Virus record (IMG/VR): IMGVR_UViG_2537562015_000005
Location: 1-27,033 of that record
Source of the DNA: a virus
Lineage: Duplodnaviria > Heunggongvirae > Uroviricota > Caudoviricetes
Reading direction: 5' to 3' (one strand)
Length of the DNA: 27,033 bases
How positions within the stretch are numbered: position 1 is the stretch's first letter; every line of letters starts with the position of its first letter. The notes below the pieces were generated by a model. It was not told where the DNA came from. It did no database searches and saw nothing but the letters and a program-made list of their open reading frames with translations. A program made the position numbers and the translations under genes. Shown one piece after another: positions 6,619 to 27,033 of this stretch.

Positions 6619-6843
6619 ATGCTGAATAATAGAGATATGAATATTAATGAACTTAAAGACTGTATTCACTATGAAGTAATCGGTAGCGAGCGTCCTTTCT
6701 CCTGGCGAAAGGCAATTGTTCGCGCAATAAAACATAGAAGACTTCGTTATTTATTTTGGTGGCGCATAGCCAAATACCTTTTTGATAAAGGCGGATACTG
6801 CCGGAAGATTGCGGGGAAAATAGAACGTTTCATTCTTGGGTAG
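6619..6843 (+). pseudogene. N-terminal fragment of a putative hexapeptide-family (CysE/WbbJ-like) acetyltransferase, cut by IS1
   Basis: AT-rich 74-aa ORF with a helical N-terminal pattern (...LRYLFWWRIAKYLFDKGG..RKIAGKIERFILG) like the N-terminus of sugar O-acetyltransferases. Its stop codon TAG (6841..6843) lies inside the IS1 terminus (IS1 starts 6839). Family assignment is tentative. Confidence 0.3.
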
Positions 6844-6853
6844 TGACTCCAAC

Positions 6854-7357
6854 TTACTGATAGTGTTTTATGTTCAGATAATGCCCGATGACCTTGTCAT
6901 GCAGCTCCACCGATTTTGAGAACGACAGTGACTTCCGTCCCAGCCTTGCCAGATGTTGTCTCAGATTCAGATTATGTCGCTCAATGCGCTGAGTGTAACG
7001 CTTGCTGATAACGTGCAGCTTTCCCTTCAGGCGTGATTCATACAGCGGCCAGCCATCCGTCATCCATACCACGACCTCAAAGGCCGACAGCAGGCTCAGA
7101 AGACGCGCCAGTGTGGCCAGAGTGCGTTCACCGAAAACGTGCGCCACAACTGTCCTCCGTATCCTGTCATACGCGTAAAACAGCCAGCGCTGACGTGATT
7201 TAGCACCGACGTAGCCCCACTGTTCGTCCATTTCCGCGCAGACAATCACATCACTGCCCGGTTGTATGCGCGAGGTTACCGACTGCGGCCTGAGTTTTTT
7301 AAGTGACGTAAAACCGTGTTGAGGCCAACGCCCATAATGCGGGCAGTTGCCCGGCAT
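6854..7357 (-). CDS. insB: IS1 transposase InsB (expressed as InsAB' by frameshift)
   Basis: 167 aa [18 protein letters not shown]...; canonical IS1 insB. Confidence 0.9.
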
Positions 7358-7551
7358 CCAACGCCATTCATGGCCATATCAATGATTTTCTGGTGCGTAC
7401 CGGGTTGAGAAGCGGTGTAAGTGAACTGCAGTTGCCATGTTTTACGGCAGTGAGAGCAGAGATAGCGCTGATGTCCGGCGGTGCTTTTGCCGTTACGCAC
7501 CACCCCGTCAGTAGCTGAACAGGAGGGACAGCTGATAGAAACAGAAGCCAC
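7276..7551 (-). CDS. insA: IS1 InsA
   Basis: 91 aa [39 protein letters not shown]...; canonical IS1 insA. Confidence 0.9.
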
Positions 7552-7760
7552 TGGAGCACCTCAAAAACACCATCATACACTAAATCAGTAAGTTGGCAGC
7601 ATCACCCAGGTTTGGCTCGAATAAAAGGTAAAACATTTGGTGCGTTACCGTTAGATAACAATAATCCATTTTGGCTAGATAATGATGCCGCCCCAGGGTT
7701 AAAAAAGAGCCTGGGGGATGTCACTAAGGCTGCATTTGATTTATGTGATAAGTAACTAAA

Positions 7761-8762
7761 ATGTCGGTTCGTAAGATTCCATCAGGTAAATGGCTTTGCG
7801 AATGTTATCCCTACGGGGCATCGGGAAAACGCATTCGTAAACAGTTTGCGACAAAAAGTGAGGCGCTCTCTTATGAGCGCCGTTTAATGAATAGTAGAGT
7901 TGGAGACGAGTTTCAAGATGGTTCTGGTCCTCGTCTTTCTGAGTTGATTGCTCGTTGGTTTGAGATGTACGGTAAAACCTTGTCCTCTGGTGCAGAGCGC
8001 AAAGTCAAACTTGAGGCGATTTGTTCCAGGCTGGGAGATCCATTTGCTTCTCAGTTTGACAAAAATATGTTTGCCACTTATCGGGAAAGAAGGTTATCAG
8101 GAGAGTGGAATCCCAAGGGGAAGAAAAAACTTAGTGAAGCAACCGTTAATCGCGAGCAGTCATATCTACATGCTGTTTTTGCCGAACTGAAGCGCCTTGG
8201 GGAGTGGTCTGGTGAAAACCCCCTGACTGGTATTCGCAAGTTTCGTGAGGAAGAAAAGGAACTGGCGTTTCTGTATGTAGATGAGATTGAACGCCTTCTG
8301 ATTGCGTGTGATGAGTCACGGAATAAAGATTTGGGGGTTGTTGTCCGTATTGGGCTTGCGACTGGTGCTCGGTGGAGTGAAGCAGAAGGGTTAAAGCAAT
8401 CTCAAGTACTGCCCGGTCGAATCACATTTGTTAAAACTAAAGGAAAGAAGAACCGCACTGTACCGATTTCACCTCAATTGCAGGCTATGCTTCCCAAAAA
8501 ACGAGGAGCGCTATTTTCACCATGTTATGAGGCTTTTGACGCTGCAATTAAGAGAGCGAAGATCGAGCTTCCTGATGGGCAATTAACTCATGTGCTACGT
8601 CACACGTTTGCCAGTCATTTTATGATGCGGGGCGGAAATATTCTTGTGTTGCAAAAAATACTGGGGCATAGCGATATAAAAATGACTATGCGTTATGCGC
8701 ATTTTGCTCCAGGTCATTTAGAGGCTGCTGTTGAATTGAACCCTTTTGACAATAGAGGGTAA
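7761..8762 (+). CDS. int: P2-type phage integrase (tyrosine recombinase)
   Basis: 333 aa; C-terminal catalytic region ...GARWSEAEGL...TFVKTKGKKNRTVPIS...HVLRHTFASHFMMRGGNILVLQKILGHSDIKMTMRYAHFAPGHLEAAVELNP closely parallels P2 Int as recalled. Sits next to a tRNA 3' fragment. Confidence 0.9.
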   Translation: MSVRKIPSGKWLCECYPYGASGKRIRKQFATKSEALSYERRLMNSRVGDEFQDGSGPRLSELIARWFEMYGKTLSSGAERKVKLEAICSRLGDPFASQFDKNMFATYRERRLSGEWNPKGKKKLSEATVNREQSYLHAVFAELKRLGEWSGENPLTGIRKFREEEKELAFLYVDEIERLLIACDESRNKDLGVVVRIGLATGARWSEAEGLKQSQVLPGRITFVKTKGKKNRTVPISPQLQAMLPKKRGALFSPCYEAFDAAIKRAKIELPDGQLTHVLRHTFASHFMMRGGNILVLQKILGHSDIKMTMRYAHFAPGHLEAAVELNPFDNRG

Positions 8763-8923: not shown

Positions 8924-8963
8924 TGGGAAAGACAAGAATAATCAAAGCAATAAGCAGTGTCGT

Positions 8964-8990
8964 GAAACCACCTACGGGTGGTTTTTTTGT
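8964..8990. terminator. Rho-independent terminator-like hairpin, possibly bidirectional
   Basis: AAACCACC-TACG-GGTGGTTT followed by a T-run, with an A-run before the stem. Lies between the tRNA fragment and the 3' end of the minus-strand gene 9024..9905. Confidence 0.55.
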
Positions 8991-9985: not shown

Positions 9986-11185
9986 ATGCAAAAATCCTTC
10001 CGATTCACCAATTCATCCATCAAAGCCCTTCCGGCAAACACAGATACCCGATCTACAGAGCTTGAGGTATCCGATACTGAGGTCATTGGCCTCAAATGCC
10101 TCTCAGGTCGAACGGGTAACAAACGTTTCCTCCTGCGCTACACATTCCACGGTACCAAAAAAAGTATCAGTATTGGCAGATTCCCTGAAATTGATGTGGG
10201 GACAGCCCGTCAGATAGCTCGTCGTCACAAGGAGGCGATTGCACTGGGAAATGACCCTAAGGCAGAACGCGATAATTATCGTGCTATGCCAACGCTTAGT
10301 GAGTTTTTTCACCAGACCTATGTTCCGTTCATCAAACGCCATAAAAAGTCCTGGGATAAGGATGTTCAGCGTTTCACGCAATACATTGAACCTTGTCTGG
10401 GGAAGATACGTTACTGTGACCTTCGGGCCCGGGAAATCCAGCAGGTGCTTTTCGACATGCTTGAGGGTCGTATTCACGGGCAGCAATATGCGCCGTCTAC
10501 CTGTAACAGAGCCCTTGCTATTCTGAAAACGATGGGGCGTTATGCGTTGCGACAGGATGTGCTGGAAAAGAATGAAGCCGATAAGATCCCTTTACTGAAA
10601 GAGAATAATCAGCGGACGCGCTTTTTTGATGCTGATGAGATCAGGCGCATTCTTGACGCTGCTACCCAATATCCCAACAAAGCTGCCGGGGGATTGATAG
10701 CCATGTTGTTGTTAACCGGTACACGCAAAACAGAAATGCTTAATGTCAGGCATGAACATATCGACCGGGCCAATCGTACTCTGTTCATTCCTTATACAAA
10801 AAATGGTCGCAGTCGGACGGTATATCTAAGCGATGCCGCATTATCGATTATTGATGCTATCCCACGAGTTGGCAGTAATCCGTATCTGTTCGCCATTAAG
10901 GATAATGGCAAACCGATATCGGAACCCCGATGGGCATATGAAAAAATACTGGCACAGTGCGGTATAGACAAGAATGAAGTCTGTTTTCACACCACACGTC
11001 ATTCTGTTGCCTCTTTACTGGTTTCGAGTGGTCAATTCAGCCTGTATGACGTTAAAGCCCAACTGGCGCATGCCAGTATTCAGAGTACAGAACGTTACGC
11101 GAAATTAACACCGGAACGTATGCGTCAGACAGGGCAGGGAGTGACTGACCTGCTTCTGAATACTGCGGCTACGAAGCAGATGTGA
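9986..11185 (+). CDS. int: P4-type integrase (tyrosine recombinase)
   Basis: ATG at 9986 preceded by GAGGA (the track ORF starts upstream at 9956 in the same frame). N-terminal arm-binding-type region plus C-terminal catalytic region (..LLLTGTRKTEM..HTTRHSVASLL..ERYAKL). Confidence 0.85.
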   Translation: MQKSFRFTNSSIKALPANTDTRSTELEVSDTEVIGLKCLSGRTGNKRFLLRYTFHGTKKSISIGRFPEIDVGTARQIARRHKEAIALGNDPKAERDNYRAMPTLSEFFHQTYVPFIKRHKKSWDKDVQRFTQYIEPCLGKIRYCDLRAREIQQVLFDMLEGRIHGQQYAPSTCNRALAILKTMGRYALRQDVLEKNEADKIPLLKENNQRTRFFDADEIRRILDAATQYPNKAAGGLIAMLLLTGTRKTEMLNVRHEHIDRANRTLFIPYTKNGRSRTVYLSDAALSIIDAIPRVGSNPYLFAIKDNGKPISEPRWAYEKILAQCGIDKNEVCFHTTRHSVASLLVSSGQFSLYDVKAQLAHASIQSTERYAKLTPERMRQTGQGVTDLLLNTAATKQM

Positions 11186-11215
11186 CTACTTTTTAGCAAA
11201 CTATAAATATGGAGA

Positions 11216-11458
11216 ATGAGGATGCATTTAAAATGCCCACAGTGTGGCAGTTGTAATACATTGATAAGTTCAGCAGGAAAACTGCCATCGATAACCGATA
11301 ATAAACACTCTGGGTATATTAGCCTGGAGTTTTTACCTGAAATACTGAAAGAAATTATTAAGGCTATTAAAAAACTATTTGGATTCCTTGAACAGTGTGA
11401 AAGGAATAATGCTCCAGTGCTTATCTGTATGGACTGTGGATATTATGAAAGAATTTAA
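11216..11458 (+). CDS. Small zinc-ribbon protein, hypothetical
   Basis: 80 aa with paired Cys motifs (CPQCGSC ... CMDCGYY); followed by a strong terminator. Confidence 0.45.
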   Translation: MRMHLKCPQCGSCNTLISSAGKLPSITDNKHSGYISLEFLPEILKEIIKAIKKLFGFLEQCERNNAPVLICMDCGYYERI

Positions 11459-11503
11459 ATAGAAAACCAATAACTGTAAATAATAGTTATGCGGATGTAT
11501 AAA

Positions 11504-11537
11504 AACCTCGATACGTTAATCGTATCGGGTTTTTTGT
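11504..11537 (+). terminator. Rho-independent terminator
   Basis: ACCTCGATACG-TTAAT-CGTATCGGGT followed by TTTTTT. Confidence 0.6.
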
Positions 11538-11553
11538 TTATGAGGATTATTCA

Positions 11554-11925
11554 ATGAAATTTGTCTCGAACTGGCAAGACCTGCCGTCGCTCCTTCTTCC
11601 GGAGTCAGTAATGAGTCTGTTGAAAACAGAGCTGGTACTCCCATTTGAAGATGAATACTCTGCAATGAGTTTCTGGGATGAAGTCGGGGTGACATTAATA
11701 TATGTCGAGCCCGATGATGTACCTGAAGATATTAAAGCGCAGGTATTAAATGTGATTCATCAGTTAATTGCAAATCCAGAATTTGTAGTCCGTCTGACAG
11801 ATGACTATTACCTGATGCTTTCTGTTACGGAAGATAACGGGAACGGTATTTATCTGTTATTTCACCCCGATTGCCCTCTGAAGGGTATTGATTTATTAAT
11901 TTCTATGGCCGAATCACGCTATTAA
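11554..11925 (+). CDS. Hypothetical acidic protein
   Basis: 123-aa ORF; no family recognised. Confidence 0.5.
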   Translation: MKFVSNWQDLPSLLLPESVMSLLKTELVLPFEDEYSAMSFWDEVGVTLIYVEPDDVPEDIKAQVLNVIHQLIANPEFVVRLTDDYYLMLSVTEDNGNGIYLLFHPDCPLKGIDLLISMAESRY

Positions 11926-11950
11926 ACACAAGCAAAACCAGGAACGCAAA

Positions 11951-12484
11951 ATGAGTAAATCAAAATTAGTTAAAAATAATGTTGAGTCAGTTTCGAAGGA
12001 GATTAAAAATGAGGCAGAGGTTATTCATGAAAATCTCAGTGCAGATGAACAAACATTATCTGATGTAAAAGACTATCAGTTGCTCATTGAAACAGGCCAG
12101 GCAGAAAAAATCAGTCCTAAGGCAAGTGGTATGCTGACATGGCAACTGGCGATATCAGAGGTGGATAATGAACTTTATCTTCGTCTGGTGGCAAATGGCT
12201 GTGGAGGGTTGTTCTCTAAGGACTGGATCTCACTTTCAAAGATTGCAACTGTTCTGGAAACACAACCTGCTACCGGCTTCTCATCCGGAGTATTCAGGCC
12301 GCTATTCAAAGGGGCAAGCGCCAACAATGCAGGTTTTCTGGCTGCTGTTTTACGCTCCCCGGATATATGTCTGCTGGAGGCACATCCAGAGAAGTTATTT
12401 ACTCATGTATTATACCCGGACTGGAGGGAGCGGTTGAATAAACTTAATACGATCAGTAGCCAGGAAAAGATTACAGAGGATTAA
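11951..12484 (+). CDS. Hypothetical protein
   Basis: 177-aa ORF; no family recognised. Confidence 0.5.
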   Translation: MSKSKLVKNNVESVSKEIKNEAEVIHENLSADEQTLSDVKDYQLLIETGQAEKISPKASGMLTWQLAISEVDNELYLRLVANGCGGLFSKDWISLSKIATVLETQPATGFSSGVFRPLFKGASANNAGFLAAVLRSPDICLLEAHPEKLFTHVLYPDWRERLNKLNTISSQEKITED

Positions 12485-12566
12485 TTTATTTCCTGCACTG
12501 TTATACAACCAGAAATCACCACACACCACTATTTACTTTCTAAAGGAAAATGGTAGTGACTCCAAC

Positions 12567-13070
12567 TTACTGATAGTGTTTTATGTTCAGATAATGCCCG
12601 ATGACCTTGTCATGCAGCTCCACCGATTTTGAGAACGACAGTGACTTCCGTCCCAGCCTTGCCAGATGTTGTCTCAGATTCAGATTATGTCGCTCAATGC
12701 GCTGAGTGTAACGCTTGCTGATAACGTGCAGCTTTCCCTTCAGGCGTGATTCATACAGCGGCCAGCCATCCGTCATCCATACCACGACCTCAAAGGCCGA
12801 CAGCAGGCTCAGAAGACGCGCCAGTGTGGCCAGAGTGCGTTCACCGAAAACGTGCGCCACAACTGTCCTCCGTATCCTGTCATACGCGTAAAACAGCCAG
12901 CGCTGACGTGATTTAGCACCGACGTAGCCCCACTGTTCGTCCATTTCCGCGCAGACAATCACATCACTGCCCGGTTGTATGCGCGAGGTTACCGACTGCG
13001 GCCTGAGTTTTTTAAGTGACGTAAAACCGTGTTGAGGCCAACGCCCATAATGCGGGCAGTTGCCCGGCAT
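12567..13070 (-). CDS. insB: IS1 transposase InsB
   Basis: Identical to 6854..7357. Confidence 0.9.
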
Positions 13071-13264
13071 CCAACGCCATTCATGGCCATATCAATGATT
13101 TTCTGGTGCGTACCGGGTTGAGAAGCGGTGTAAGTGAACTGCAGTTGCCATGTTTTACGGCAGTGAGAGCAGAGATAGCGCTGATGTCCGGCGGTGCTTT
13201 TGCCGTTACGCACCACCCCGTCAGTAGCTGAACAGGAGGGACAGCTGATAGAAACAGAAGCCAC
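12989..13264 (-). CDS. insA: IS1 InsA
   Basis: Identical to 7276..7551. Confidence 0.9.
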
Positions 13265-13314
13265 TGGAGCACCTCAAAAACACCATCATACACTAAATCA
13301 GTAAGTTGGCAGCA

Positions 13315-14139
13315 TCACCCAGAGTATACAATGCTTAAAATTATGGCGTTACTTATATTATTAATTGCAGTTGGGTAAATATGCAGGTTGCTTATCAATT
13401 CTGAAAGGCAAAGTAAAACACCAGTGATGTTAGGTTTTCTGCCAGATATTGTGGTGGTGTTGAAAATGTGCCGATTCTTACGACTTATATTGACAAATTT
13501 ATGAGTGCAGAACTCTATATGTTCGACGATTTTATCTTGACTATTTTTAATGTATTTTGAAATGTTAGTGATTCGTCCATTCAACGTTAGCTCATCAAGT
13601 AATATGTCATTTTTAATACTGCGAATTTCATCGCAATGTTTAGATTCAAAAACTATCTCATGTAATACATAACTCGACGTATTGCGGGGTGACGCTGATA
13701 TGTAATCTAAAATAGAAGGCTCGATTTTGATTTTTTGTTTGTATTTTTTAATGCACTGTTTGATTATTTTTTGTAGAGTATTTGAGATGTGTTTTTTATA
13801 TTCTTTTAGAAAATCATGCTCTAAAAAGAGTGAGGAGAAGATCAACTGCTGGCGAGATAATTTAATCTCAGGCTTGATCAATTTAATCCGGAAAACTCTT
13901 CCCTCCAACTCATAGCTGAACATGGAAGATAAGTCATAGTGGGGTGATAAATGTTCGAGTAACGACATTCGTGTATTCATTAGCCGCTTGAATTTATGGT
14001 CAGCATACATAAGTATTTTTTTTATTTGCTCATCGTAAAGTGGGCCGATAACGCAATTAGCAATACTCATACTATCCGGAGACCTCCAGTCAACAGGGGA
14101 ATCACATTGACGGCCACCATTACAATCAAAGGGTATCAA
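13315..14139 (-). CDS. AT-rich hypothetical protein (K/I/N-rich), probably truncated at the 3' end by IS1; likely start near 14071 (MSIANCVIG...)
   Basis: Visibly AT-rich ORF, foreign to its neighbours. Its stop codon (13315..13317) lies inside the IS1 terminus (IS1 ends 13319). Divergent from hsdM. No family recognised. Confidence 0.5.
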   Translation of the reverse strand: MIPFDCNGGRQCDSPVDWRSPDSMSIANCVIGPLYDEQIKKILMYADHKFKRLMNTRMSLLEHLSPHYDLSSMFSYELEGRVFRIKLIKPEIKLSRQQLIFSSLFLEHDFLKEYKKHISNTLQKIIKQCIKKYKQKIKIEPSILDYISASPRNTSSYVLHEIVFESKHCDEIRSIKNDILLDELTLNGRITNISKYIKNSQDKIVEHIEFCTHKFVNISRKNRHIFNTTTISGRKPNITGVLLCLSELISNLHIYPTAINNISNAIILSIVYSG

Positions 14140-14442
14140 CTTTGCCGATTATGGATCATGTCAGCTTCACACACCAGAATGGGTGATATATGGATCATCA
14201 TTACCCCAACGGCAGTTTTACACCATGGCTAATATGGATGCTATCTTACTAAGATAATTGGTTTTTAGCGAGTGACGAGCCAGGTTGTGTCAGTCTGTCT
14301 CATGTCGATATTACGGGGATGATGCAAACCTGAATGCTGCGATATTGGCGTGTCAGGGGAGGCATCTTACGGTATCATTTACCGCAATTTTTAAGATGCA
14401 AAGCCCTGCATCGCTAGCTTTTTCTTCAGACCAGGATGATTC

Positions 14443-16029
14443 ATGAACGACAAAATCAGTCAGGACACGATCAACAAAGCCCTGTGGGCCGCGTGTGATA
14501 CGTTCCGTGGCACCATCAGTGCTGATACCTATAAAGACTTTATCCTTACCATGCTGTTCCTTAAGTACATTTCGGATGTCTGGCAGGATCATTACGATGA
14601 ATATAAAAAACAGTATGGTGATGCACCAGAACTCATTGAAGCCATGATGTCGAATGAACGTTTCGTATTGCCGAAAAGCGCCAGTTTCTATGCGCTGTAT
14701 GAACGTCGTCATGAACCGGGCAATGGTGAGCGCATCGACCAGGCTCTGCATGCGATTGAAGAAGCTAATGGCACCAAACTGAAAGACGCCGGGAAAAGCG
14801 TGTTCCAGGATATTTCGTTTAACACCGATCGCCTAGGTGAAGAAAAACAGAAGAACACCATCCTGCGTCAGCTGCTGGAAGACTTTGCCGGTCAAGATCT
14901 TAACCTGAAGCCGAGCCGTGTCGGTACGCTGGACGTTATCGGTAATGCCTACGAATATCTGATCAAAAACTTTGCTGCCAGCGGTGGGCAGAAAGCCGGG
15001 GAATTCTATACCCCACCAGAAGTTTCGGACCTGATTGCAGAACTGCTCGATCCGCAACCGGGTGATACCATCTGCGATCCGGCCTGTGGTTCCGGTTCAT
15101 TATTGATGAAGTGTGGGCGTAAAATTGTCTCCGGGCATGATAGTCGTAACTATGCATTGTTCGGTCAGGAAGCGATCGGTTCTACGTGGTCGCTGGCGAA
15201 AATGAATATGTTCCTGCACGGGGAAGACAACCATAAAATCGAGTGGGGCGATACCATTCGTAACCCGAAGCTGCTCGATAAAAATGGCGACCTGATGCTG
15301 TTTGATATCGTGACCGCTAACCCACCGTTCAGCCTCGATAAGTGGGGCCATGACGAGGCCGAGAACGATAAGTTTGGCCGTTTTCGTCGCGGTGTACCGC
15401 CGAAGACTAAAGGCGATTACGCCTTTATCTCACATATGATCGAAACCCTGAAACCAGGAACGGGGCGTATGGGCGTAGTTGTGCCACACGGTGTGCTGTT
15501 CCGTGGTTCCAGCGAAGGTAAAATTCGCCAGAAACTGATCGACGAAAATCTGCTGGATGCCGTCATTGGCTTGCCGGAAAAACTGTTCTACGGTACAGGT
15601 ATTCCTGCTGCGATTCTGATTTTCAAAAAACAGAAAGTGGATGACAAGGTACTGTTTATCGATGCCAGCCGTGAATATAAGGCGGGCAAAAACCAGAACC
15701 AGCTCAGCGCAGAAAATATCCAGAAGATCGTTAACACCTATCGTGAAGGCGATAACGTCGAGAAATACGCCTATCTCGCCAGCCTGAAAGAGATTCAGGA
15801 CAACGACTATAACCTTAATATTCCACGCTATGTCGATACCTTTGAGGAAGAAGACGAAATTGATTTGCTGGCGGTACGTGCTGAGCGTGAGCAACTGAAA
15901 GCGGAACTGGTAAAGCTGGAAATGGAGATGGCTGGGTATTTGAAAGAATTAGGGTACGATTGGCAGAAAGATTCCGAGGGCACACAAAAAATAAACTCTG
16001 CGGAAGTGAATTTTGGAGATTTTGAATGA
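14443..16029 (+). CDS. hsdM: Type I restriction-modification N6-adenine DNA methyltransferase HsdM
   Basis: 528 aa; AdoMet motif DPACGSGSLL and catalytic NPPF; N-terminal HsdM-type helical domain. Confidence 0.95.
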   Translation: MNDKISQDTINKALWAACDTFRGTISADTYKDFILTMLFLKYISDVWQDHYDEYKKQYGDAPELIEAMMSNERFVLPKSASFYALYERRHEPGNGERIDQALHAIEEANGTKLKDAGKSVFQDISFNTDRLGEEKQKNTILRQLLEDFAGQDLNLKPSRVGTLDVIGNAYEYLIKNFAASGGQKAGEFYTPPEVSDLIAELLDPQPGDTICDPACGSGSLLMKCGRKIVSGHDSRNYALFGQEAIGSTWSLAKMNMFLHGEDNHKIEWGDTIRNPKLLDKNGDLMLFDIVTANPPFSLDKWGHDEAENDKFGRFRRGVPPKTKGDYAFISHMIETLKPGTGRMGVVVPHGVLFRGSSEGKIRQKLIDENLLDAVIGLPEKLFYGTGIPAAILIFKKQKVDDKVLFIDASREYKAGKNQNQLSAENIQKIVNTYREGDNVEKYAYLASLKEIQDNDYNLNIPRYVDTFEEEDEIDLLAVRAEREQLKAELVKLEMEMAGYLKELGYDWQKDSEGTQKINSAEVNFGDFE

Positions 16030-17123
16030 CTCTTAAATGGGAAAAGGTTCGTTTAGGAGATGTCGCAGAATTACAACGTGGTTTTGATCTACCCAGTACT
16101 AAGCGTATTGAAGGGGAGATTCCTATTGTTTCATCAAGTGGAATAACAGGCTTCCATGTTGAAGCGAAGGCAAAGGCTCCAGGAGTTGTCACTGGGCGAT
16201 ATGGTTCGATTGGTGATGTTTTTTATTTAGAACAGGATTTTTGGCCATTAAATACATCCTTATGGGTTAAAGATTTTCATGGAAATGACGAAAAATTTAT
16301 CTACTTTCTGTTGAGTAACTTTGACTTTAAAAAATTTAGTGACAAAACAGGTGTGCCCGGTGTTAACCGTAATGACTTGCATGCAGTGAATGTATTACTG
16401 CCGCCACTCTCGGAGCAAAAGAAAATCGCCCAAATCCTGTCAACCTGGGATAAAGCTATTTCGGTGACGGAAAAGCTTCTCACCAACAGCCAGCAGCAGA
16501 AAAAAGCCCTGATGCAGCAATTACTTACCGGGAAGAAACGCTTGCTGGATGAGAGGGGGGGCAGGTATGGTGGTGAGTGGCATCGTGCTGAGCTTGGCGC
16601 AGTTTTAGATTATATGCAGCCAACCCCTTATCTAGTTGATTCTACTGATTATAATGATAGTTACTCAATCCCAGTTCTTACAGCAGGTAAAAGTTTCATT
16701 CTTGGCTATACCAATGAAGAACATGGTATTTATCATGCACCTTTGCCTGCCATAATTTTTGATGATTTCACGACTGATAGTAAGTTCGTCGATTTTGAAT
16801 TCAAAGCAAAATCCAGTGCGATGAAAATTCTTACAGCCAAAAAAGGAGTATCTGCAAAGTATATTTTTGAAGCAATGCAAATGTTGAAATTTAAAATAGG
16901 TGGGCATCAGCGGCATTGGATTTCAATTTATTCCAACTTAGTAATACCTATTCCAGATGCCAAGGAACAACAAAAAATCGCCGCCGTCCTTTCCGCTGCA
17001 GACGCCGAAATCTCCACACTGGAGAAAAAACTCGCCTGCCTGAAAGACGAGAAAAAAGCCCTGATGCAGCAGTTACTGACCGGAAAACGTCGGGTGAAAA
17101 TCGATGAGGCTGTTGCTGCATGA
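16026..17123 (+). CDS. hsdS: Type I R-M specificity subunit HsdS
   Basis: 365 aa with two target-recognition domains separated by conserved helical repeats (QQKKALMQQLLTGKKRL and EKKALMQQLLTGKRRV). ATGA overlap with hsdM. TRD2 is visibly more AT-rich. Confidence 0.9.
   Translation: MTLKWEKVRLGDVAELQRGFDLPSTKRIEGEIPIVSSSGITGFHVEAKAKAPGVVTGRYGSIGDVFYLEQDFWPLNTSLWVKDFHGNDEKFIYFLLSNFDFKKFSDKTGVPGVNRNDLHAVNVLLPPLSEQKKIAQILSTWDKAISVTEKLLTNSQQQKKALMQQLLTGKKRLLDERGGRYGGEWHRAELGAVLDYMQPTPYLVDSTDYNDSYSIPVLTAGKSFILGYTNEEHGIYHAPLPAIIFDDFTTDSKFVDFEFKAKSSAMKILTAKKGVSAKYIFEAMQMLKFKIGGHQRHWISIYSNLVIPIPDAKEQQKIAAVLSAADAEISTLEKKLACLKDEKKALMQQLLTGKRRVKIDEAVAA
16500..16540 (+). repeat. hsdS conserved central repeat; direct repeat partner at 17052..17089
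   Basis: AAAAAAGCCCTGATGCAGCA(A/G)TTACT(T/G)ACCGG occurs twice within hsdS, about 550 bp apart. Confidence 0.8.
17052..17089 (+). repeat. hsdS conserved C-terminal repeat; partner of 16500..16540
   Basis: See partner repeat. Confidence 0.8.
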
Positions 17124-17803
17124 AACTGACGAAAAGTGGTCCACTGACTGACCGGGAAATCGACTGGCTGGAAGAGGTGTTGATGAAATACGGCAATGAT
17201 GACTCTGTGCTCTGTTTCTCTGAGCTGGATGGCTTTCTGACGGCGATTGTCTCTGGCCCGAATACGATTTCCCCTAATACCTGGCTCAGTGCTATCTGGG
17301 GGCGAGGTGATTACCACCCTCGCTGGACCACTGAAAAAGAGATGACGCGTTTTGTGGGGCTGTGTTTTCAGCATATGAACGATATCGCTGGCTGCCTGTA
17401 TGAGGCCCCTGAACAGTTTGAACCGATTTTCAATGAGCGTGAGGTAAAGGGGGAAAAATATACCATTGTGGAAGAGTGGTGTTTTGGTTATATGAAAGGA
17501 AAGTCACTGGATGACTGGTCTGGTCTTCCCGGTGAGTTACGGCCTTCTCTGGAAGTGATCGCTCTTCATGGCGTGGAGAAGAATTTTCCTGTACTTGAGA
17601 AAATGACCGGAGAGCAGTTTGAGAAAAGTATTTCCCTTATTCAGCCTGCTGCACTGGCACTTTATCAGTACTGGTTGTCAGTGAGAATGTCAGAGGCATC
17701 ATCCCGGCCTGTTCCAGTGAAGGGGGCAGAAAACATGCCCGGGCGAAATGACCCGTGTCCGTGTGGCAGCGGTAAAAAATTTAAGAAGTGCTGTCTGCAT
17801 TGA
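17120..17803 (+). CDS. YecA-like protein (UPF0149 domain + C-terminal SEC-C zinc-binding motif) embedded in the hsd operon
   Basis: 227 aa ending GRNDPCPCGSGKKFKKCCLH (SEC-C motif as in the SecA C-terminus and YecA). N-terminal region resembles YecA. Start overlaps the hsdS stop (ATGA). Confidence 0.8.
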   Translation: MKLTKSGPLTDREIDWLEEVLMKYGNDDSVLCFSELDGFLTAIVSGPNTISPNTWLSAIWGRGDYHPRWTTEKEMTRFVGLCFQHMNDIAGCLYEAPEQFEPIFNEREVKGEKYTIVEEWCFGYMKGKSLDDWSGLPGELRPSLEVIALHGVEKNFPVLEKMTGEQFEKSISLIQPAALALYQYWLSVRMSEASSRPVPVKGAENMPGRNDPCPCGSGKKFKKCCLH

Positions 17804-17852: not shown

Positions 17853-20800
17853 ATGATGAACCAGACGTACACGCCAAAATTCCAGGAAGAATACAGCGCC
17901 AAAATTCCGGCACTGACGTTACTGACCAGCCTCGGCTGGACGTTTTTATCTCCGAAACAGATTATGGATTACCGGGGCTATAAACAGGATGAGGTGGTGC
18001 TGCGTCCGGTTCTGCGTGAAGAGCTGTCGAAGCGTTCCTTTATGGCGGGTGGCAAAACCTGCCAGTTATCGGAAAAAGCACTGGATAACCTGATATCACA
18101 GGTCTGTTCTCCGGCGCTCAATGAAGGGCTGCTCAAAGCCAATGAACGGATGTATAACCATCTGCTCTACGGTATCGCCGTCACGGAGTTTGTCGATGGC
18201 AAGAAGGTCAACCCCACCATTGCGCTGATCGACTGGGAACATCCGGAAAATAACCAGTTCCATTTTACTGAAGAATTTACGGTATTGCGGTCAGGTGGTG
18301 TTGAAACCCGGAGGCCAGATATTGTCTGCTTTGTTAATGGTATCCCGCTGGCTGTTATTGAAGCGAAAAGCCCGGCTGGTCATGGCAAGAAAGGGCCAAC
18401 CATTGACGAGGGGATATCCCAGAGTATCCGCAACCAGTTCAACGATGAAATCCCGCAGCTGTTTGTCTACAGCCAGTTATTACTTTCGATTAACGGTCAT
18501 GACGGGCGCTACGGTACATGCCATACGCCAATGAAATTCTGGGCGGCATGGCGCGAAGAAGATATTACCGATGCGCAGATGTATGCTCTGCGCAACCATC
18601 CTTTATCGACTGAACAAATTCATGCGTTGTTTGATCATCGTCCATCAGCCGATCTCAACTGGTACCAACAGTTAATCGCCGCCGGTGAACTGGCTGTCAG
18701 TGGACAGGACAAACTGCTCATCAGCCTGCTTTCGCCGGAACGTCTGCTGGAGATGACCCGCTTCTTCACTCTGTTTGATAAAAAGACCGGGAAAATTGTC
18801 GCCCGCTATCAGCAGGTGTTCGGTATTAAAAGACTGCTGGAGCGCATCAGTACCCGCAGACCCGATGGGGGCAGGGAAGGTGGTGTTATCTGGCATACCA
18901 CCGGCTCTGGCAAATCGTACACCATGGTGTTCCTCAGCAAGGCGCTGATTCTTCATGACAGCCTGAAGCGGTGTCGTATCGTGGTGGTGACGGACCGTAT
19001 CGATCTTGAAGAACAGCTCAGCAGTACCTTTGCATCCGGCGGCGAGTTGGCCGGGAAAAAAGACAAAGCCAATGCAATGGCGACATCCGGGCAGATGCTG
19101 GCGAAACAGATTGGCTCTGGTAAAGAACGCATCATTTTCACCCTAATCCAGAAATTTAATTCAGCGACAAAACTTCCTGAATGCGTCAATACCAGCCCCG
19201 ATATCATCGTTCTGATTGATGAAGGACACCGTAGCCAGGGTGGTGAGAACCATGTGCGAATGAAACTGGCACTGCCGAACGCCGCCTTTGTAGCATTTAC
19301 TGGTACGCCATTGCTAAAAGAAGATAAGACCACCAATAAATTCGGACCGATTGTCCACGCTTATACCATGCAGCGAGCGGTAGAAGATAAAGCCGTTACA
19401 CCTTTGCTGTATGAAGAACGTATTCCCGACCTTGAGGTTAACGATCGGGCAATAGATGCCTGGTTTGATCGTATTACCGATGGGTTAAGCGAAGCGCAAA
19501 AAGCCGACCTTAAGCGTAAATATGCCCGTAAAGGTGAGGTTTATAGTGCAGATGATCGCATCCGTCTGATCGCACTCGATATCGCCACGCACTTCTCGAA
19601 GAATATTGATGAGGGACTGAAAGGCCAGCTTGCCTGCGACAGCAAGATTTCCGCCATCAAATATAAAAAGTATCTTGATGAAGCCGGGTTGTTTGAGTCA
19701 GCTGTAGTTATCAGCCCGCCGGATACCCGGGAAGGGAATACTGAGGTGGATGAAAGCAAACTGCCGGAAGTGACGAAATGGTGGAAAGATAACGTCGGCA
19801 CGCAGGATGAGTCTGTGTATACCCGCAATATCATCAGTCGTTTCGATACCGATGAGAAGCTCAAATTGCTGATAGTCGTTGATAAACTGCTCACCGGGTT
19901 TGATGAGCCGAAGAATACCGTGCTGTATATCGACAAGCCGCTTAAGTCCCACAACCTTATCCAGGCGATTGCGCGGGTGAACCGACTGCATCCACTAAAA
20001 AAGTTCGGTCTGCTGATTGATTATCGCGGTATTCTGGCTGAGCTGGACACGACTATCGGCAAATATCAGGACCTCGCCTCCCGAACTCAGGGCGGATACG
20101 ACATCAAAGATATTGACGGGCTGTACAGCGCCATGAGCTCTGAATACAAGCGCCTGCCGCATCTGTATAACCAGCTGTGGGCCATATTTGCTGGTGTCAA
20201 AAACAAAAATGATACTGAGCAGTTACGTGCGGTACTGGTGCCTAAAATGGAAGAACGTGACGGAGAGATGGTCGATATCCATCAGAAAACCCGTGATGAT
20301 TTCTTCGAGGCGTTAACGGCCTTTGCCGGATGCCTGAAAGTGGCATTGCAGTCCGCCACCTTCTTCACCGACAAGAGCTTTACGGAACAAGACCGAAATC
20401 TCTATAAAGAAACCGTAAAACAGATGTCCAGCCTGCGCCAGTGGGCGATGCAGGTAAGTGGAGAGCAGGTCAATTATGACGACTACGCTGAGCAGGTGAA
20501 AAAACTGCTGGATAAGCATGTCACCGGCGTTGAGGTTCGTGAACCGGATGGCGTGTATGAAGTCGGTAAAATGGGCAAGAGCGAAAAGCCCGAAGAGTGG
20601 GACAACAATAAAACCCGCAATGAAACCGACATCATTAAAACCCGTGTGACAAAGATGATTGAGCAGGAGCTGCGTGATGACCCGTATGCTCAGGAAGCCT
20701 TTTCAAAACTCCTGCGTATGGCTATTGAAGAGGCTGAAAAACTGTTCGACCATCCGTTGAAACAGTATCTCTTGTTCCGTGAATTTGAAGAACAGGTTGA

Positions 20801-21140
20801 AGCCCGTAAGCTCAGCGATATCCCGGATGCACTGGCGGTAAACAAGCATGCTCAGGCGTATTACGGTGTATTTAAAAAAGAGCTACCAGAGGTTTTTGCG
20901 GTAAACGACGTTCAGGTGCAGGATAAGTGGACGAAGCTGGCTTTTGAAGTGGACAACATTATCGTCAAAGCGGTGGCAGAAAACTCCCTGAACCCACAGG
21001 ATATTGAAAAAGCCGTTAAGACAAGTCTTTTGCCGCTGCTGTTTACGGCCTGCCGGGAGATGGGTGCCGGAATGAATCAGGTTAACCGTATTGTGGAAAC
21101 CATCATCCAGATACTGCGCGTTGGTTTGATGAAATCATGA
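17853..21140 (+). CDS. hsdR: Type I restriction enzyme R subunit HsdR (EcoR124-like, probably type IC)
   Basis: 1095 aa; nuclease region (FVNGIPLAVIEAKS), helicase motifs (GGVIWHTTGSGKS, LIDEGHRSQ, FTGTP, LLTGFDEP, QAIARVNR) colinear with EcoR124 HsdR as recalled. Confidence 0.95.
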   Translation: MMNQTYTPKFQEEYSAKIPALTLLTSLGWTFLSPKQIMDYRGYKQDEVVLRPVLREELSKRSFMAGGKTCQLSEKALDNLISQVCSPALNEGLLKANERMYNHLLYGIAVTEFVDGKKVNPTIALIDWEHPENNQFHFTEEFTVLRSGGVETRRPDIVCFVNGIPLAVIEAKSPAGHGKKGPTIDEGISQSIRNQFNDEIPQLFVYSQLLLSINGHDGRYGTCHTPMKFWAAWREEDITDAQMYALRNHPLSTEQIHALFDHRPSADLNWYQQLIAAGELAVSGQDKLLISLLSPERLLEMTRFFTLFDKKTGKIVARYQQVFGIKRLLERISTRRPDGGREGGVIWHTTGSGKSYTMVFLSKALILHDSLKRCRIVVVTDRIDLEEQLSSTFASGGELAGKKDKANAMATSGQMLAKQIGSGKERIIFTLIQKFNSATKLPECVNTSPDIIVLIDEGHRSQGGENHVRMKLALPNAAFVAFTGTPLLKEDKTTNKFGPIVHAYTMQRAVEDKAVTPLLYEERIPDLEVNDRAIDAWFDRITDGLSEAQKADLKRKYARKGEVYSADDRIRLIALDIATHFSKNIDEGLKGQLACDSKISAIKYKKYLDEAGLFESAVVISPPDTREGNTEVDESKLPEVTKWWKDNVGTQDESVYTRNIISRFDTDEKLKLLIVVDKLLTGFDEPKNTVLYIDKPLKSHNLIQAIARVNRLHPLKKFGLLIDYRGILAELDTTIGKYQDLASRTQGGYDIKDIDGLYSAMSSEYKRLPHLYNQLWAIFAGVKNKNDTEQLRAVLVPKMEERDGEMVDIHQKTRDDFFEALTAFAGCLKVALQSATFFTDKSFTEQDRNLYKETVKQMSSLRQWAMQVSGEQVNYDDYAEQVKKLLDKHVTGVEVREPDGVYEVGKMGKSEKPEEWDNNKTRNETDIIKTRVTKMIEQELRDDPYAQEAFSKLLRMAIEEAEKLFDHPLKQYLLFREFEEQVEARKLSDIPDALAVNKHAQAYYGVFKKELPEVFAVNDVQVQDKWTKLAFEVDNIIVKAVAENSLNPQDIEKAVKTSLLPLLFTACREMGAGMNQVNRIVETIIQILRVGLMKS

Positions 21141-21892
21141 GTGAAAAAGAATCGCCATCAATGAAAGCGTTACGCATTGTTTATGGTGATGAGGTCATCA
21201 CCGTACAGTGTGTTCCGCGTCAGGTCGTAAAGGGCAGGGTGCTCATCAAGGTTTATCCGGACTGCCGGGTTGTGGCCTCTGTACCGCCTGAAACACCGGA
21301 GCACGAGGTATTGTCTGCGCTGAAAAAACGAGGGCGCTGGATATACCAGCAACTGCGTGATTTCAGGGTGCAACAGACACACATTGTTCCGCGTCAGTAT
21401 GTCAGCGGAGAAAGCCATTATTATCTCGGTAAGCAATATCAGTTGAAAGTGACAGAAGACGCTACTGTGCCGCAACGAGTGAAAATGTTGCGTGGGCGTC
21501 TGGAAGTGACTGTCAGACACAAATCGGCAGAAAAGATTAAAGCCTTGCTGGCTGAATGGTATCGGGAACGCGCCAGAGATGTTTTTCAGCGCAGGCTTGA
21601 TTTACTGATTCCGCAGACCCTTTGGGTCAGTGAGCGTCCTCCGATACGTCTGCGGGCGATGCAAACGCAATGGGGCAACTGCTCTGCAAAAGGCTGTCTG
21701 ACCCTGAATCCATGGCTGGTTAAGGCATCCTCAGAATGTATCGATTATGTCTTGCTACATGAGTTATGCCATGTGGCTGAGCACAACCATAGTGAGGAGT
21801 TTTACCGCTTGATGGGGCAGGTTATGCCGGGGTGGGAAAAGGTTAAGAAGCGACTGGATGGTATGGCTGGGATGTTGTTGGCAGATATGTAG
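21137..21892 (+). CDS. HExxH zinc metallopeptidase-like protein (DUF45/YgjP-like), translationally coupled to hsdR
   Basis: 251 aa with LLHELCHVAEHNH (HExxH) near the C-terminus; start overlaps the hsdR stop (ATGA). Confidence 0.8.
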   Translation: MSEKESPSMKALRIVYGDEVITVQCVPRQVVKGRVLIKVYPDCRVVASVPPETPEHEVLSALKKRGRWIYQQLRDFRVQQTHIVPRQYVSGESHYYLGKQYQLKVTEDATVPQRVKMLRGRLEVTVRHKSAEKIKALLAEWYRERARDVFQRRLDLLIPQTLWVSERPPIRLRAMQTQWGNCSAKGCLTLNPWLVKASSECIDYVLLHELCHVAEHNHSEEFYRLMGQVMPGWEKVKKRLDGMAGMLLADM

Positions 21893-21923: not shown

Positions 21924-22525
<602 letters not shown>

Positions 22526-22546: not shown

Positions 22547-24001
22547 ATGATGGAGAGCATTAATAATCAAGTGCAGTCGGTACGCCAGTTGCTGGCCATT
22601 CCCCAACTGGCCATCCCAAGCTATCAGCGACCTTACCGCTGGGGCTCCAAGAATATCTCGGATCTCTTTACCGATTTGGCAACCCATCAGGACAAGAGCG
22701 CCTACCGGCTGGGCTCGGTGGTGTTTCATCAGCACACCGATAGTGAGCAGGGCGAGATGCTTGATATCGTCGATGGTCAGCAACGCACCCTGACCCTGAT
22801 GTTGACCGTCAAGGCGCTGATCGAGGTGCTGGATAACGAAAATCGCAGTGGCAAAGAGAAGAGTATCCGGTTTCAACGTCAGGATCTGCGTGAGCAATTG
22901 CAGGTCTTGCGTGGACCTATCGATGCGTTTATGCAGCGCCAGCGCTTCCCCAGCCGGGATTCGGAGTTCAACCTCAGACGTAACTATCTGGAGTTGCGTC
23001 GGCTGGTGGCCCGCCCTGAGTTTGACGAGCAGCAAATTGACTTTCTGCTCAACCGCTGTCAGGTGGTCTGCTTTGTACTGCAGGATATCTCGGAGGCGTT
23101 CCAGTTCTTCGATTCGCAAAATGCCCGGGGGCGCGATCTGGCTCCTCACGATCTGCTCAAGGCATTTCACCTGCGCGAGTTTGCCGGTCATGAGGCCAAT
23201 CTCAAGGCCGAGGCGGTCGCCCATTGGGAGCGCCAGCCAAGCGACGAGCTGGCCAATCTGTTCGCCCTCTATCTCTATCGGGTACGCCAGTGGGCCGAGG
23301 GCAAGTCGGCCCGCTACTTTGGCAAGGGGGAGGTGGATCTCTTCAAGGGGGTCAACCTAGATCGGGTAGGGCATTATCCTTACGTGGAGTCGCTGCGCAT
23401 CGCCCACCACTTTGTCGATGAGTACAACAGCCAGTACCAGCGCAAGATTGACGGCCAGTACATGACGTTTCCCTTTCATCTCGACCAGATGATCATCAAT
23501 GGTCGGCGCTTTTTCGAGATGGCCGAGTACTACCAGACGCGGGTGGCCGCCATCGTGGCCGAGGAGTCTGATTCCGGCAAGGCGCAATCTGCCACCCTGC
23601 TCGGCGAAACGCTGACACCGATGGCCAGCAAGGTGCTATCGACCCTGGGCAGCTACGAGCGTCGCCACCGCACCGGGGATCGTTATGTGCGGGCCATGTT
23701 CGACTGCGCCCTGATCTTCTATATCGACAAGTTCGGCAGCCAAGGGCTGTCACTGGCCATCGAGAAGTGCTTTATCTGGGCCTATCGCTGCCGCATCCGC
23801 CAGCAGGTAGTGCAGTTGGCAACCATGGATAACTATGTGCTGGAGCACAATCTGATCCGTGCCATTCGTGATGCTCGTCTGCCGGGAGATCTGCACGGCT
23901 TCCCTTTGCCTAGCATGAGCAGTCGAGAGAACAAGAACAATCGCAATGGTGCCGAAGATGAGCTGGTCGGGCTGTTTCGGGAGATGAAATATTATGAATG
24001 A
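22547..24001 (+). CDS. DUF262-domain protein (ParB-like/GmrS-like N-terminal module; no nuclease motif seen)
   Basis: 484 aa; N-terminal motifs [10 protein letters not shown] and [12 protein letters not shown], then [22 protein letters not shown]. High GC. Overlaps the next gene by 8 nt. Confidence 0.8.
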
Positions 24002-26036
24002 TGCAGGCGTTCGCCCCTTTTCCATTCGTGCACTGCTTGAAGATCGCGCCCGCTATCTGGTGCCCATGTACCAGCGCAACTATGCCTGGGGTGAGGGAGA
24101 GATCACCCAGCTGCTGCAGGATGTGCTGGATTATCAGCAAAAATTGGTCAGTGGTAAGGGGCCGCAAACCTACTATATCGGCACCCTGGTGGTGTTTGCC
24201 CGGGACGATGGCAGTTTCGAGGTAATCGATGGCCAGCAGCGCTTTACTACCCTCTCTCTGCTGGCCAATTGGCTCAAACATCACGCGATAGATTCGGTGG
24301 ATATGAGCTGGTATCAGACCATCAACCTCGCTTTTGAGAGTCGCCCGATATCGAGCCATACCTTCGAGCGCTTATGGCAGGGTGTTGCCCCCGACGATTT
24401 GCGGGGGAGTACCTTCAATGAAGGTTTGGTGAACGGTTTTGAGCTGATTGGCAAGGCAATGGCGGATCTTGGTTTGGTAGGGGCTAAACTGACGGCCTTT
24501 TGCGACTACCTCTTCAAGCATGTGCAGATCTCTCGTATCGAAGTACCCAAGGATACCGATCTCAATCACTTCTTCGAGGCGATGAACAATCGCGGCGAGC
24601 AGTTGGAAAAGCATGAAGTGATCAAGGCGCGGCTGATGGAGACGCTGAACCAGATACCCGAGGAAGAGCATCGTCGCCAAAGTATTCATATCCTGACCCG
24701 GGTATGGGATGCCTGCGCCAATATGGAGCGCTATATCCAGTACGGCTTTACCCCGCAAGAGCGCCACCGTCTGTTTGGTGAGAGCGACTGGGGTCAGTTT
24801 GTGCCCCGTGATTTTGCCCATCTGCTTGAACTGCTAGGATCCCCAAACACGGCCGACGCTGCCGATAAAAGCCGTGCAGCTGCCGGTAGCCAAGGGCGCA
24901 CCTTGTTGGCCATTTTGCAGGATGACAAGCTTGATGGTGAGCAGACGGTGGAGGAGGAGAGCGCAGGCTCCGAGCGCTTTAACAGCGTCATCAACTTCTC
25001 CAACTTCTTGCTCCATGTGCTGCGACTCGTGAGCCGCGACCCGGGTGATACGGAGGGGGTGCCGCTTGATGATAAACAACTGGTCGATCAGTTTGAGCTG
25101 CGAGTGATAAGGCAACCGGATCCAGTAGCGGCAGTTCAGCGTTTTATCTATGGCCTGTTAAAGAGCAAGTATCTGTTTGATCAGTTCATCATCAAGCGCG
25201 AGTTTGCCGATGGCAAGGATAGTTGGAGTCTGAAGCGGCTGCACTGGTATTCGGAAAAGAGCGTCAGTTACATCAATACCTTTGACAAGGATGAAAATGA
25301 GAATGGTTTCTCTGGTGTTAACCGGCGGGTCCTGATGTTGCTGTCGGCGTTTCATGTGTCGACCCCGACCCTGGTTTACAAACATTGGCTGAATGGTGCA
25401 CTGAGATATCTGTTCGACAATTGTCACCCTGATCAACCGGTGGATGCCGGGGCTTATCTGTCCTATCTGGAGAGTCAGGCTCGCCGCTTTGTCTTCCAGC
25501 GCTTTTTGGCGCCTGGTGAAGGGGCTTCCTATTACCAGATGCTCTACCTTGATAACGCCCTGTTGCCCGCCATCAATGTGGATGAGAGTTGGCACAAGGT
25601 GATTACATCCAAACTTCGCTTCGGTCATATCGAGAACAACTTTGTCTTCAACTTCCTTGACTATCTGCTGTGGGTACGAGATCGGAATAGCGACAAAGTT
25701 GCTGGCTCCTTTGAGTTCACTTTCCGCAGCTCGGTGGAGCACTTCTCACCCCAGCATCCGATGGATGGCTATAAACCGGTTGAGCAGAGTGCACTCCATT
25801 CGTTTGGCAACCTTTGCCTTATCAGCCACAGCAAGAACTCGCGCTTGAGTAACTTCCAGCCGCAACAGAAGCAGGAGCACTTTGAAGCAAGCCTTGCCAA
25901 TAACCAGACTGATAGTCTTAAATTGCTTGCTATGATTCGGCTGATGAAAGATAAAGGTCGTTGGCTGGAAGATGAGATAGCTGAGCATCAACAAGATATG
26001 TTGCAGGTCTTACTATCCAATCAAATTCAGCAATAA
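23994..26036 (+). CDS. DUF262 + DUF1524 protein (GmrSD-like, candidate type IV / modification-dependent endonuclease)
   Basis: 680 aa; N-terminal [38 protein letters not shown]; C-terminal His-Me-finger-like region [15 protein letters not shown]...[20 protein letters not shown]. High GC. Confidence 0.85.

Positions 26037-26223: not shown

Positions 26224-27033
<810 letters not shown>

Follow-up and report, generated by a model that had tools for sequence, protein, structure and literature searches.

The window analyzed here, a stretch of 27,033 nucleotides, contains an AT-rich open reading frame that faces a type I R-M operon on one side and runs into an IS1 element on the other, and it raises the questions of what this gene is, how it came to end where it does, and whether it belongs with the R-M genes or with some other part of the locus. 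We refer to the copy in the window as X' and to its intact homologs as X. X' occupies bp 13315–14070 on the minus strand and encodes a 251 amino acid protein (RefSeq WP_001393407.1); a TTG start would extend it upstream through bp 14071–14139 on the same strand, and the longest ORF, bp 13315–14139, has 274 amino acids. All aligned X orthologs share an MSI(A/T/D)N start (MSIANC... in X'), and the DNA 5' of this ATG has indels between genera (E. coli vs. Salmonella) and no conserved coding. The shared start and the upstream indels indicate that the ATG at bp 14070, which is also the RefSeq start, is the real start of X, and the extension is probably not translated. The G+C content of X' is 33.5%, compared with 49.4% for the window, and its protein contains 14.3% isoleucine, 10.7% leucine, 10.3% serine, 9.9% lysine and 6.3% asparagine. 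It is oriented divergently from hsdM (bp 14443–16029, plus strand), from which it is separated by 372 bp. The initial annotation was thus right to describe an AT-rich ORF of 250 to 274 amino acids (the two start options) and foreign composition that lies upstream of, and divergent from, the R-M operon.

The window is E. coli DNA. The 2.1 kb section that was queried around this gene (bp 12400–14500) is 100% identical to ETEC strain E1739 (NZ_CM180506.1), and the exact 251 amino acid protein is found on nine public contigs. In its orthologs the X frame is open over 388–399 codons, down to 45% identity, and dN/dS between intact orthologs is 0.11–0.28. These ratios indicate that the intact copies are functional genes under purifying selection; on this comparative evidence X is a real gene, and a chance ORF is ruled out.

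The IS1 element into which X' runs is complete (768 bp; bp 12552–13319, minus strand), with IRL, IRR and the InsA and InsB ORFs all present and its IRL end toward X'. X' consists of 250 native codons (bp 14070–13321), followed by a hybrid glycine codon (GGG) and a TGA, both completed by the element; the last native base is 13320, the TGA is bases 3–5 of IS1, and the stop is, as had been claimed, the second codon that contains IS1 bases. In spite of its complete structure, this IS1 does not have the hallmarks of a simple insertion. Its flanks, AAGGAAAAT and CAGAGTATA, contain no 8–9 bp target-site duplication, and the target does not continue beyond the element. When both flanks were mapped on the H10407 genome they were found to be separated by 10,543 bp (NC_017633.1, 2116890–2127432), the left flank lying in the region of a 177 amino acid orphan beside the IntSXT integrase and the right flank at X codon 250. 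The missing 10,543 bp holds the 3' end of X, h376, IntP2, the excisionase, h212, piPolB, h108, a WYL regulator, DUF726 and DUF2787. Sister strains E1648, E1654 and E1316 carry the same joint between X' and IS1 with different DNA beyond the IS1, and the IS1 insertions in the X genes of the ST536 mussel strain and NCTC9080 have, unlike the window, both halves of X in place. The missing duplication and the replacement of 10,543 bp mark the truncation as the edge of a deletion and rule out a simple insertion; judged from these junctions, X' is what was left over when IS1 mediated a deletion or when IS1 recombined with IS1. The earlier description of the ORF as cut by IS1 therefore holds for the place of the truncation and fails for the simple insertion event that it implied.

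That the native C-terminus has been lost was also correctly surmised. X without this IS1 is found in many E. coli genomes. Intact X is 388 amino acids long in H10407 (locus tag ETEC_RS10620), M9682-C1 (O6:H16), Citrobacter, Franconibacter and Intestinirhabdus; X' is colinear with the intact protein, and identical to 388 amino acid homologs, through residue 250 (...NAIILSIVYS), and the remaining 138 residues (36%) are missing. No intact homolog that ends at X residue 250 was found.

The genes on either side of the joint identify the island. On the left, the window retains the IntSXT-type site-specific integrase of a pipolin (bp 9986–11185, plus strand) and, as the last pipolin gene before the IS1, the 177 amino acid orphan (WP_000045627.1; bp 11951–12484, plus strand), which in H10407 is followed by DUF2787. 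This left flank (1552 bp) covers the IntSXT integrase and 123 and 177 amino acid orphans and is 99.4% identical to H10407. Pipolins are integrative elements that encode piPolB and act as defense islands (PMC5695915, PMC7385651, PMC11551731); an IntSXT/DUF2787/WYL/piPolB/IntP2-Exc core and a distal defense-rich cargo module have been described (PMC11551731). The intact order, for example in H10407, is IntSXT, orphans, DUF2787, a 24 bp repeat, DUF726, WYL, h108, piPolB (866 amino acids), h212, Exc, IntP2, h376, X, the 24 bp repeat again, hsdM, hsdS, a YecA-like gene, hsdR, an M48 gene and further cargo, with a P2-like prophage on the IntSXT side and DUF262 after M48; the published E. coli/H10407 pipolin with its adjacent, co-integrated myovirus (P2-like prophage) has the same gene order (PMC7385651). 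Like the pipolins of H10407 and 3-373-03_S1_C2, within which an intact X homolog lies beside h376, IntP2, Exc and piPolB, the window has the P2-like prophage, IntSXT and the orphans on one side and distal defense cargo on the other (type I R-M, M48, two DUF262 genes and DUF4011 downstream). It differs from them in having no piPolB, IntP2, excisionase, WYL or DUF2787 gene, all of which fall within the interval replaced relative to H10407, so that detection by hallmark genes would miss it. piPolB is present in every intact X locus (E. coli, Citrobacter, Franconibacter, Intestinirhabdus, Salmonella and Edwardsiella). By gene content the window is thus a pipolin remnant without its core, and it is not a pipolin by the criterion of the piPolB hallmark. 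It seems quite likely that X' is the 5' 250 codons of the accessory orphan X in a core-deleted pipolin; an IS1-mediated deletion or IS1–IS1 recombination would have removed the replication and recombination core and left X' behind. IS-associated core deletions are known in Enterobacterales pipolins (PMC11551731), and IS1 genes occur in 33–41% of E. coli pipolins (PMC5695915, PMC7385651, PMC11551731). The window documents a pipolin stripped of its hallmark polymerase via IS1, and such islands escape piPolB-based screens yet still carry defense cargo.

The 372 bp divergent intergenic region between X' and hsdM (bp 14071–14442) holds a 24 bp motif, GGTGTAAAACTGCCGTTGGGGTAA, at bp 14201–14224 (minus strand); on one side of it the X ATG follows after 130 bp, on the other hsdM after 218 bp. 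The motif shows no variation across any of the pipolin loci examined or across 61 metagenome contigs, and its distance from hsdM is always 218 bp; in loci without X it lies 62–90 bp upstream of h376. Every locus long enough to show one has a second copy, in direct orientation and with 0–4 mismatches, at a distance of 7.3–10.8 kb, in the gap where DUF726/WYL and DUF2787 converge (at 19558 in locus L011, 20709 in L012, 12840 in L038, 7688 in L050, 10548 in L070 and 1778 in L010, H10407). The pair brackets [X]-h376-IntP2-Exc-h212-piPolB-h108-WYL-DUF726; the window keeps one copy, and the deletion took the second. The published att repeats of pipolins overlap tRNA-Leu and mark the outer ends of the element (PMC7385651), and no mention of inner direct repeats was found in the searchable texts of the pipolin literature. 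There is no tRNA gene in the window or the related loci, and neither an empty site nor a circular junction for the repeat was seen among the 61 metagenome contigs. From its position and orientation the repeat pair looks like candidate attL/attR-like sites of a nested unit served by IntP2/Exc. A role of the motif as promoter or operator is less likely. A sigma-70 consensus scan upstream of X gave nothing on the X strand, and the only promoter-like site that it placed in the intergenic region (bp 14350–14378) is directed toward hsdM. No Rfam family was matched in or near the X ORF. The repeat may define an inner excisable unit of the pipolin.

The initial annotation could not assign X' to any family, and this remains so after profile and structure searches, which also gave no match to any housekeeping family. 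X has no significant match in Pfam, NCBIfam, PHROGs or PADLOC; in PADLOC-DB 2.0 (systems to 2023) truncated and intact X gave no match at E ≤ 10, and the H10407 copy none at E ≤ 0.1. A profile search of 1.84 billion representative proteins returned only the X family and fragments of it, and among 5.8 billion proteins the family comprises 13 clusters, all from Enterobacterales. A profile search of the PDB gave no sequence match, and tblastn against plasmid and phage collections gave none. In the pipolin literature X can only match an unnamed "hypothetical" shell gene for which HHpred was blank (Table S3, PMC7385651). AlphaFold2 models of full-length X (from an 8-sequence alignment; pLDDT 41.9) and of its isolated C-terminal 149 residues (pLDDT 54.5) are mostly helical, and a Foldseek search of the PDB with the C-terminal model found nothing below E 3.5. 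Intact X is predicted to be a soluble, basic (pI ∼9.4), 45 kDa protein that is, in these low-confidence models, mainly α-helical. By all of these searches X is a true orphan: nothing related to it was detected beyond the family. A membrane protein was considered and rejected, as X has no conserved hydrophobic segment at the transmembrane level, and so was paralogy with its AT-rich neighbor h376, to which no relation was found.

In intact loci a palindromic hairpin with a 12 bp stem (8953–8983 in locus L007) lies ∼20 bp 3' of the X stop and is followed by a variable spacer of ∼500 bp before h376. The hairpin and the distance to h376 suggest that X is a stand-alone transcription unit. In many E. 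coli genomes megablast homology ends ∼5 bp past the X stop, which points to a recombination breakpoint at that place.

Comparison among genera indicates with which part of the island X has traveled. In tblastn searches with H10407 proteins, Edwardsiella tarda shows 58% identity for X, 69% for h376, 69% for IntP2 and 66–67% for piPolB, against 98–99% for hsdM/hsdR; in Salmonella the values are 58% for X, 69% for h376, 69% for IntP2 and 66% for piPolB, and the R-M cassette is absent. X thus tracks the divergence of the piPolB/IntP2 module and not that of the near-identical, exchangeable R-M genes, which argues that it is not R-M cargo; from these values the R-M genes are recently exchanged cargo, and X has diverged together with the piPolB/IntP2 module. 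In pipolins of Serratia, Lelliottia, Hafnia and Enterobacter, on the other hand, hsdM (or a remnant of it) faces h376 directly and there is no X, and a 45% identical X is found in another island that has a different integrase, a DUF927 primase and no piPolB. The X-less pipolins and the copy in a different island argue that X is accessory rather than core. Between IntP2 and hsdM, each with 50% G+C, X (34.5%) and h376 (35.6%) stand out as an AT-rich block, and in the other island X has 33% G+C as well. By distribution and composition, then, X is an optional, compositionally foreign accessory gene that borders the core module on its inner side.

X DNA was found in 270 of the 5,426 complete E. coli genomes searched, and in 240 of them at least 80% of it is contiguous. 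The gene has been disrupted repeatedly. IS1 lies in codon 12 (locus L049), near codon 51 (the ST536 mussel strain), at codon 250 (the window) and near codon 352 (NCTC9080), and in several contigs it lies upstream of X, 87 bp past the 24 bp motif, so that independent IS1 disruptions are seen at five or more positions. Other lesions are an IS5 in MLI110, a nonsense mutation at codon 17 in PS10-3, and copies with frameshifts or other truncations. An unselected metagenome sample contained 11 intact copies of X and at least five disrupted ones. IS1 prefers AT-rich target DNA, and the recurrent disruption could reflect either a cost of the gene or merely this preference.

For the function of intact X our tentative first choice, which falls well short of a firm assignment, is a single-gene conflict function, either phage defense or exclusion of competing elements; it is suggested by the moron-like position of X, its foreign composition and optional distribution, the defense-island setting in two contexts and the recurrent knock-outs. 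Going inward from the att-like repeat, X is in every case the first gene, and integrative elements typically carry morons at att-proximal positions. P2-like phages and P4-like satellites reportedly have att-proximal morons and defense hotspots, with genes such as old and tin. Like these, X is an optional gene of foreign composition with its own terminator, between an att-like repeat and a P2-family integrase module; it differs in that its carrier is the pipolin module and in that the att role of the repeat is a conjecture from its arrangement. PADLOC, as noted above, is blank for X, and the absence of plasmid or phage copies fits a pipolin-specific function better than defense; genuine pipolin defense cargo is reported to be exchanged with plasmids and phages (PMC11551731). 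A defense role is nonetheless plausible, and should X prove to be a defense or exclusion gene it would represent a new family without known homologs.

Second, in a ranking that is itself a guess, comes a role in the life cycle of the pipolin, in which X would regulate excision or replication or commandeer a helper for transfer, and would be lost along with the core. We regard this as possible though doubtful. It is favored by the co-divergence of X with piPolB and IntP2, the restriction of X to pipolin-type islands (it was never found on plasmids or phages in the collections searched), and its place just inside the att-like repeat on the strand that it shares with h376, IntP2, Exc and piPolB; the mechanism of pipolin transfer is, moreover, an unsettled matter (PMC11551731). 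It is difficult to reconcile, however, with pipolins of Serratia, Lelliottia, Hafnia and Enterobacter that have the same core and no X, with the 45% identical homolog in the DUF927-primase island from which piPolB is absent, and with the ∼15–25% of X copies in the unselected metagenome sample that are disrupted while the core is kept. A more specific form of the conflict function is rather unlikely, namely that intact X is a new conflict protein with an unrepresented fold, carried as a moron by a nested mini-element of ∼7–11 kb that IntP2/Exc can excise, and that the X knock-outs reflect a fitness cost. Such a mini-element would comprise [X], h376, IntP2, Exc, h212, piPolB, h108, WYL and DUF726 between the 24 bp repeats, and its excision by IntP2/Exc would be independent of the outer, tRNA-bound pipolin. 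As an orphan family that is restricted to the Enterobacterales, evolves under purifying selection and has often been knocked out, X is in any case a testable object.

The remnant in the window is another matter. The most highly conserved block of the family, SQYKYIEKEYLLGQLLxFLMYK, which is near-invariant at 45% overall identity, lies in the lost part of the protein, and X' is also without the native hairpin terminator of intact X. From the loss of 36% of the protein, of this block and of the terminator we infer that X' is non-functional. It is very unlikely that the truncated 251 amino acid product is still active, as an N-terminal domain or a neo-functionalized or antitoxin-like fragment, and has been kept for that reason. 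The exact X' is found without further decay on the nine contigs mentioned above and in no fewer than four complete ETEC genomes, and its upstream region and 24 bp motif are intact; those ETEC genomes, however, are close relatives from one collection, and their shared allele can be traced to a single recent event. Besides lacking the best-conserved block, the fragment shows no sign of an independent domain boundary at its end, since the break at residue 250 falls inside a predicted helix (H261–278 in the numbering of P0001, the 410 amino acid modeled X sequence, whose N-terminus is 22 residues longer). It is conceivable that the 250-residue fragment retains some activity or acts in a dominant-negative way. 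X' by itself carries little weight; it is almost certainly a dead remnant, of an ordinary kind.

It is highly improbable that X is a partner of the adjacent type I R-M system, whether it regulated that system or served as an R-M-linked abortive-infection protein in the style of PrrC. EcoprrI, a type Ic R-M locus, has the abortive-infection nuclease PrrC embedded in it, between hsdS and hsdR. X resembles PrrC in its accessory nature and its physical linkage to a type I R-M operon, and E. coli X and hsdM diverge from a common intergenic region; X differs in being outside the operon, divergently transcribed, dispensable for the cassette and independent in its evolution, and in the window it is the YecA-like gene, not X, that occupies the PrrC-like position. 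Neither co-occurrence nor co-evolution of X with the hsd genes was found. The same hsdM with its 218 bp upstream and the motif occurs without X in four genera, the same hsdM is also found adjoining IS1 and conjugation genes, and Salmonella X occurs without the R-M genes, in addition to the discordant divergence in Edwardsiella (X 58% vs. hsdM/hsdR 98%). The tie to the R-M operon that had been proposed is therefore not borne out: hsdM is a neighbor of X and not its functional partner, and what was an R-M-associated Abi candidate is reassigned to the piPolB/IntP2 module of the pipolin.

AbiJ of Lactococcus is an abortive-infection protein in which AbiJ N-terminal domains are combined with HEPN. 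X is like it in being a single AT-rich gene in a defense-rich island whose product is Lys/Ile-rich and mostly helical, but there is hardly any prospect that it is an AbiJ-like protein, in which an AbiJ_NTD4 sensor would be followed at the C-terminus by a HEPN RNase, the toxic effector that IS1 would have removed, since the Pfam AbiJ_NTD4 match (E = 0.002; residues 113–227 of the 274 amino acid version, or 90–204 of the 251 amino acid X') scores 18.9 bits against a PF18863 gathering score of 34 and is shared by only three of ten family members, the divergent ones matching unrelated coiled-coil or helical families instead; the Rx4H motif RVSRKH, present in the missing C-terminus in some E. coli alleles, is replaced by NVSHKH, NVSHKL, NVSHKY or RVSSMK in orthologs, so that no Rx4-6H is conserved; and the top Foldseek matches of the C-terminal model, Las1 HEPN nucleases, are non-significant (E ≥ 3.5, TM ∼0.28, model pLDDT 54) and lend no structural support. 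With neither the Pfam match nor the Rx4H conserved across the family, a HEPN/AbiJ identity was rejected. The label of abortive-infection or defense cargo first given to this gene is, as stated, not supported, as it rested on guilt by association, PADLOC is blank and AbiJ failed.

The R-M cassette has features of its own. Its genes are, from hsdM on, hsdS, the YecA-like gene (UPF0149 + SEC-C; bp 17120–17803, between hsdS and hsdR), hsdR, and an M48/YgjP-like metallopeptidase gene (bp 21137–21892) that overlaps the end of hsdR; in some strains an additional ∼600 amino acid cold-shock-domain protein is encoded between hsdS and hsdR (10501–12285 in locus L001, 11549–13396 in L009). These three genes may be R-M-linked accessory modules. 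The block from X' through M48 lies between the IS1 at bp 12552–13319 and a 376 bp IS1 fragment at bp 21924–22299, both with their IRL ends inward. Several metagenome contigs (L019, L024, L026, L056 and L062) have the same hsdM and motif joined via IS1 to conjugative-transfer genes, including a TraI-like ORF of 1752 amino acids, which suggests IS1-mediated shuttling of the cassette between pipolins and conjugative elements.

A second IS1, at bp 6839–7606, is 100% identical to the copy beside X' and likewise has no target duplication; in the region examined with its flanks (bp ∼6640–7760), it connects a truncated DUF2511 gene beside the prophage integrase with a wcaB-like fragment that comes after the P2-like tail genes. 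A joint without duplication indicates that the co-integrated P2-like prophage, too, is what remained after a deletion. The IS1 on the X' side in E1316, one of the sister strains, abuts a phage tape-measure gene.

The h376 gene, deleted in the window (7367–8497 in locus L007, H10407), is a second Enterobacterales-only orphan with 35.6% G+C and no Pfam or PADLOC match. In contrast to X, it occurs in every IntP2-type pipolin examined, at identities as low as 37% and always directly upstream of IntP2, and it is a candidate core gene. At the other end of the window, after an IS1/IS3 scar, there are two overlapping DUF262 genes (GmrSD-like; bp 22550–24001 and 23994–26036) followed by a DUF4011 fragment (bp 26224–27033), which are further defense-type cargo of the pipolin remnant. 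[quoted passage not shown]
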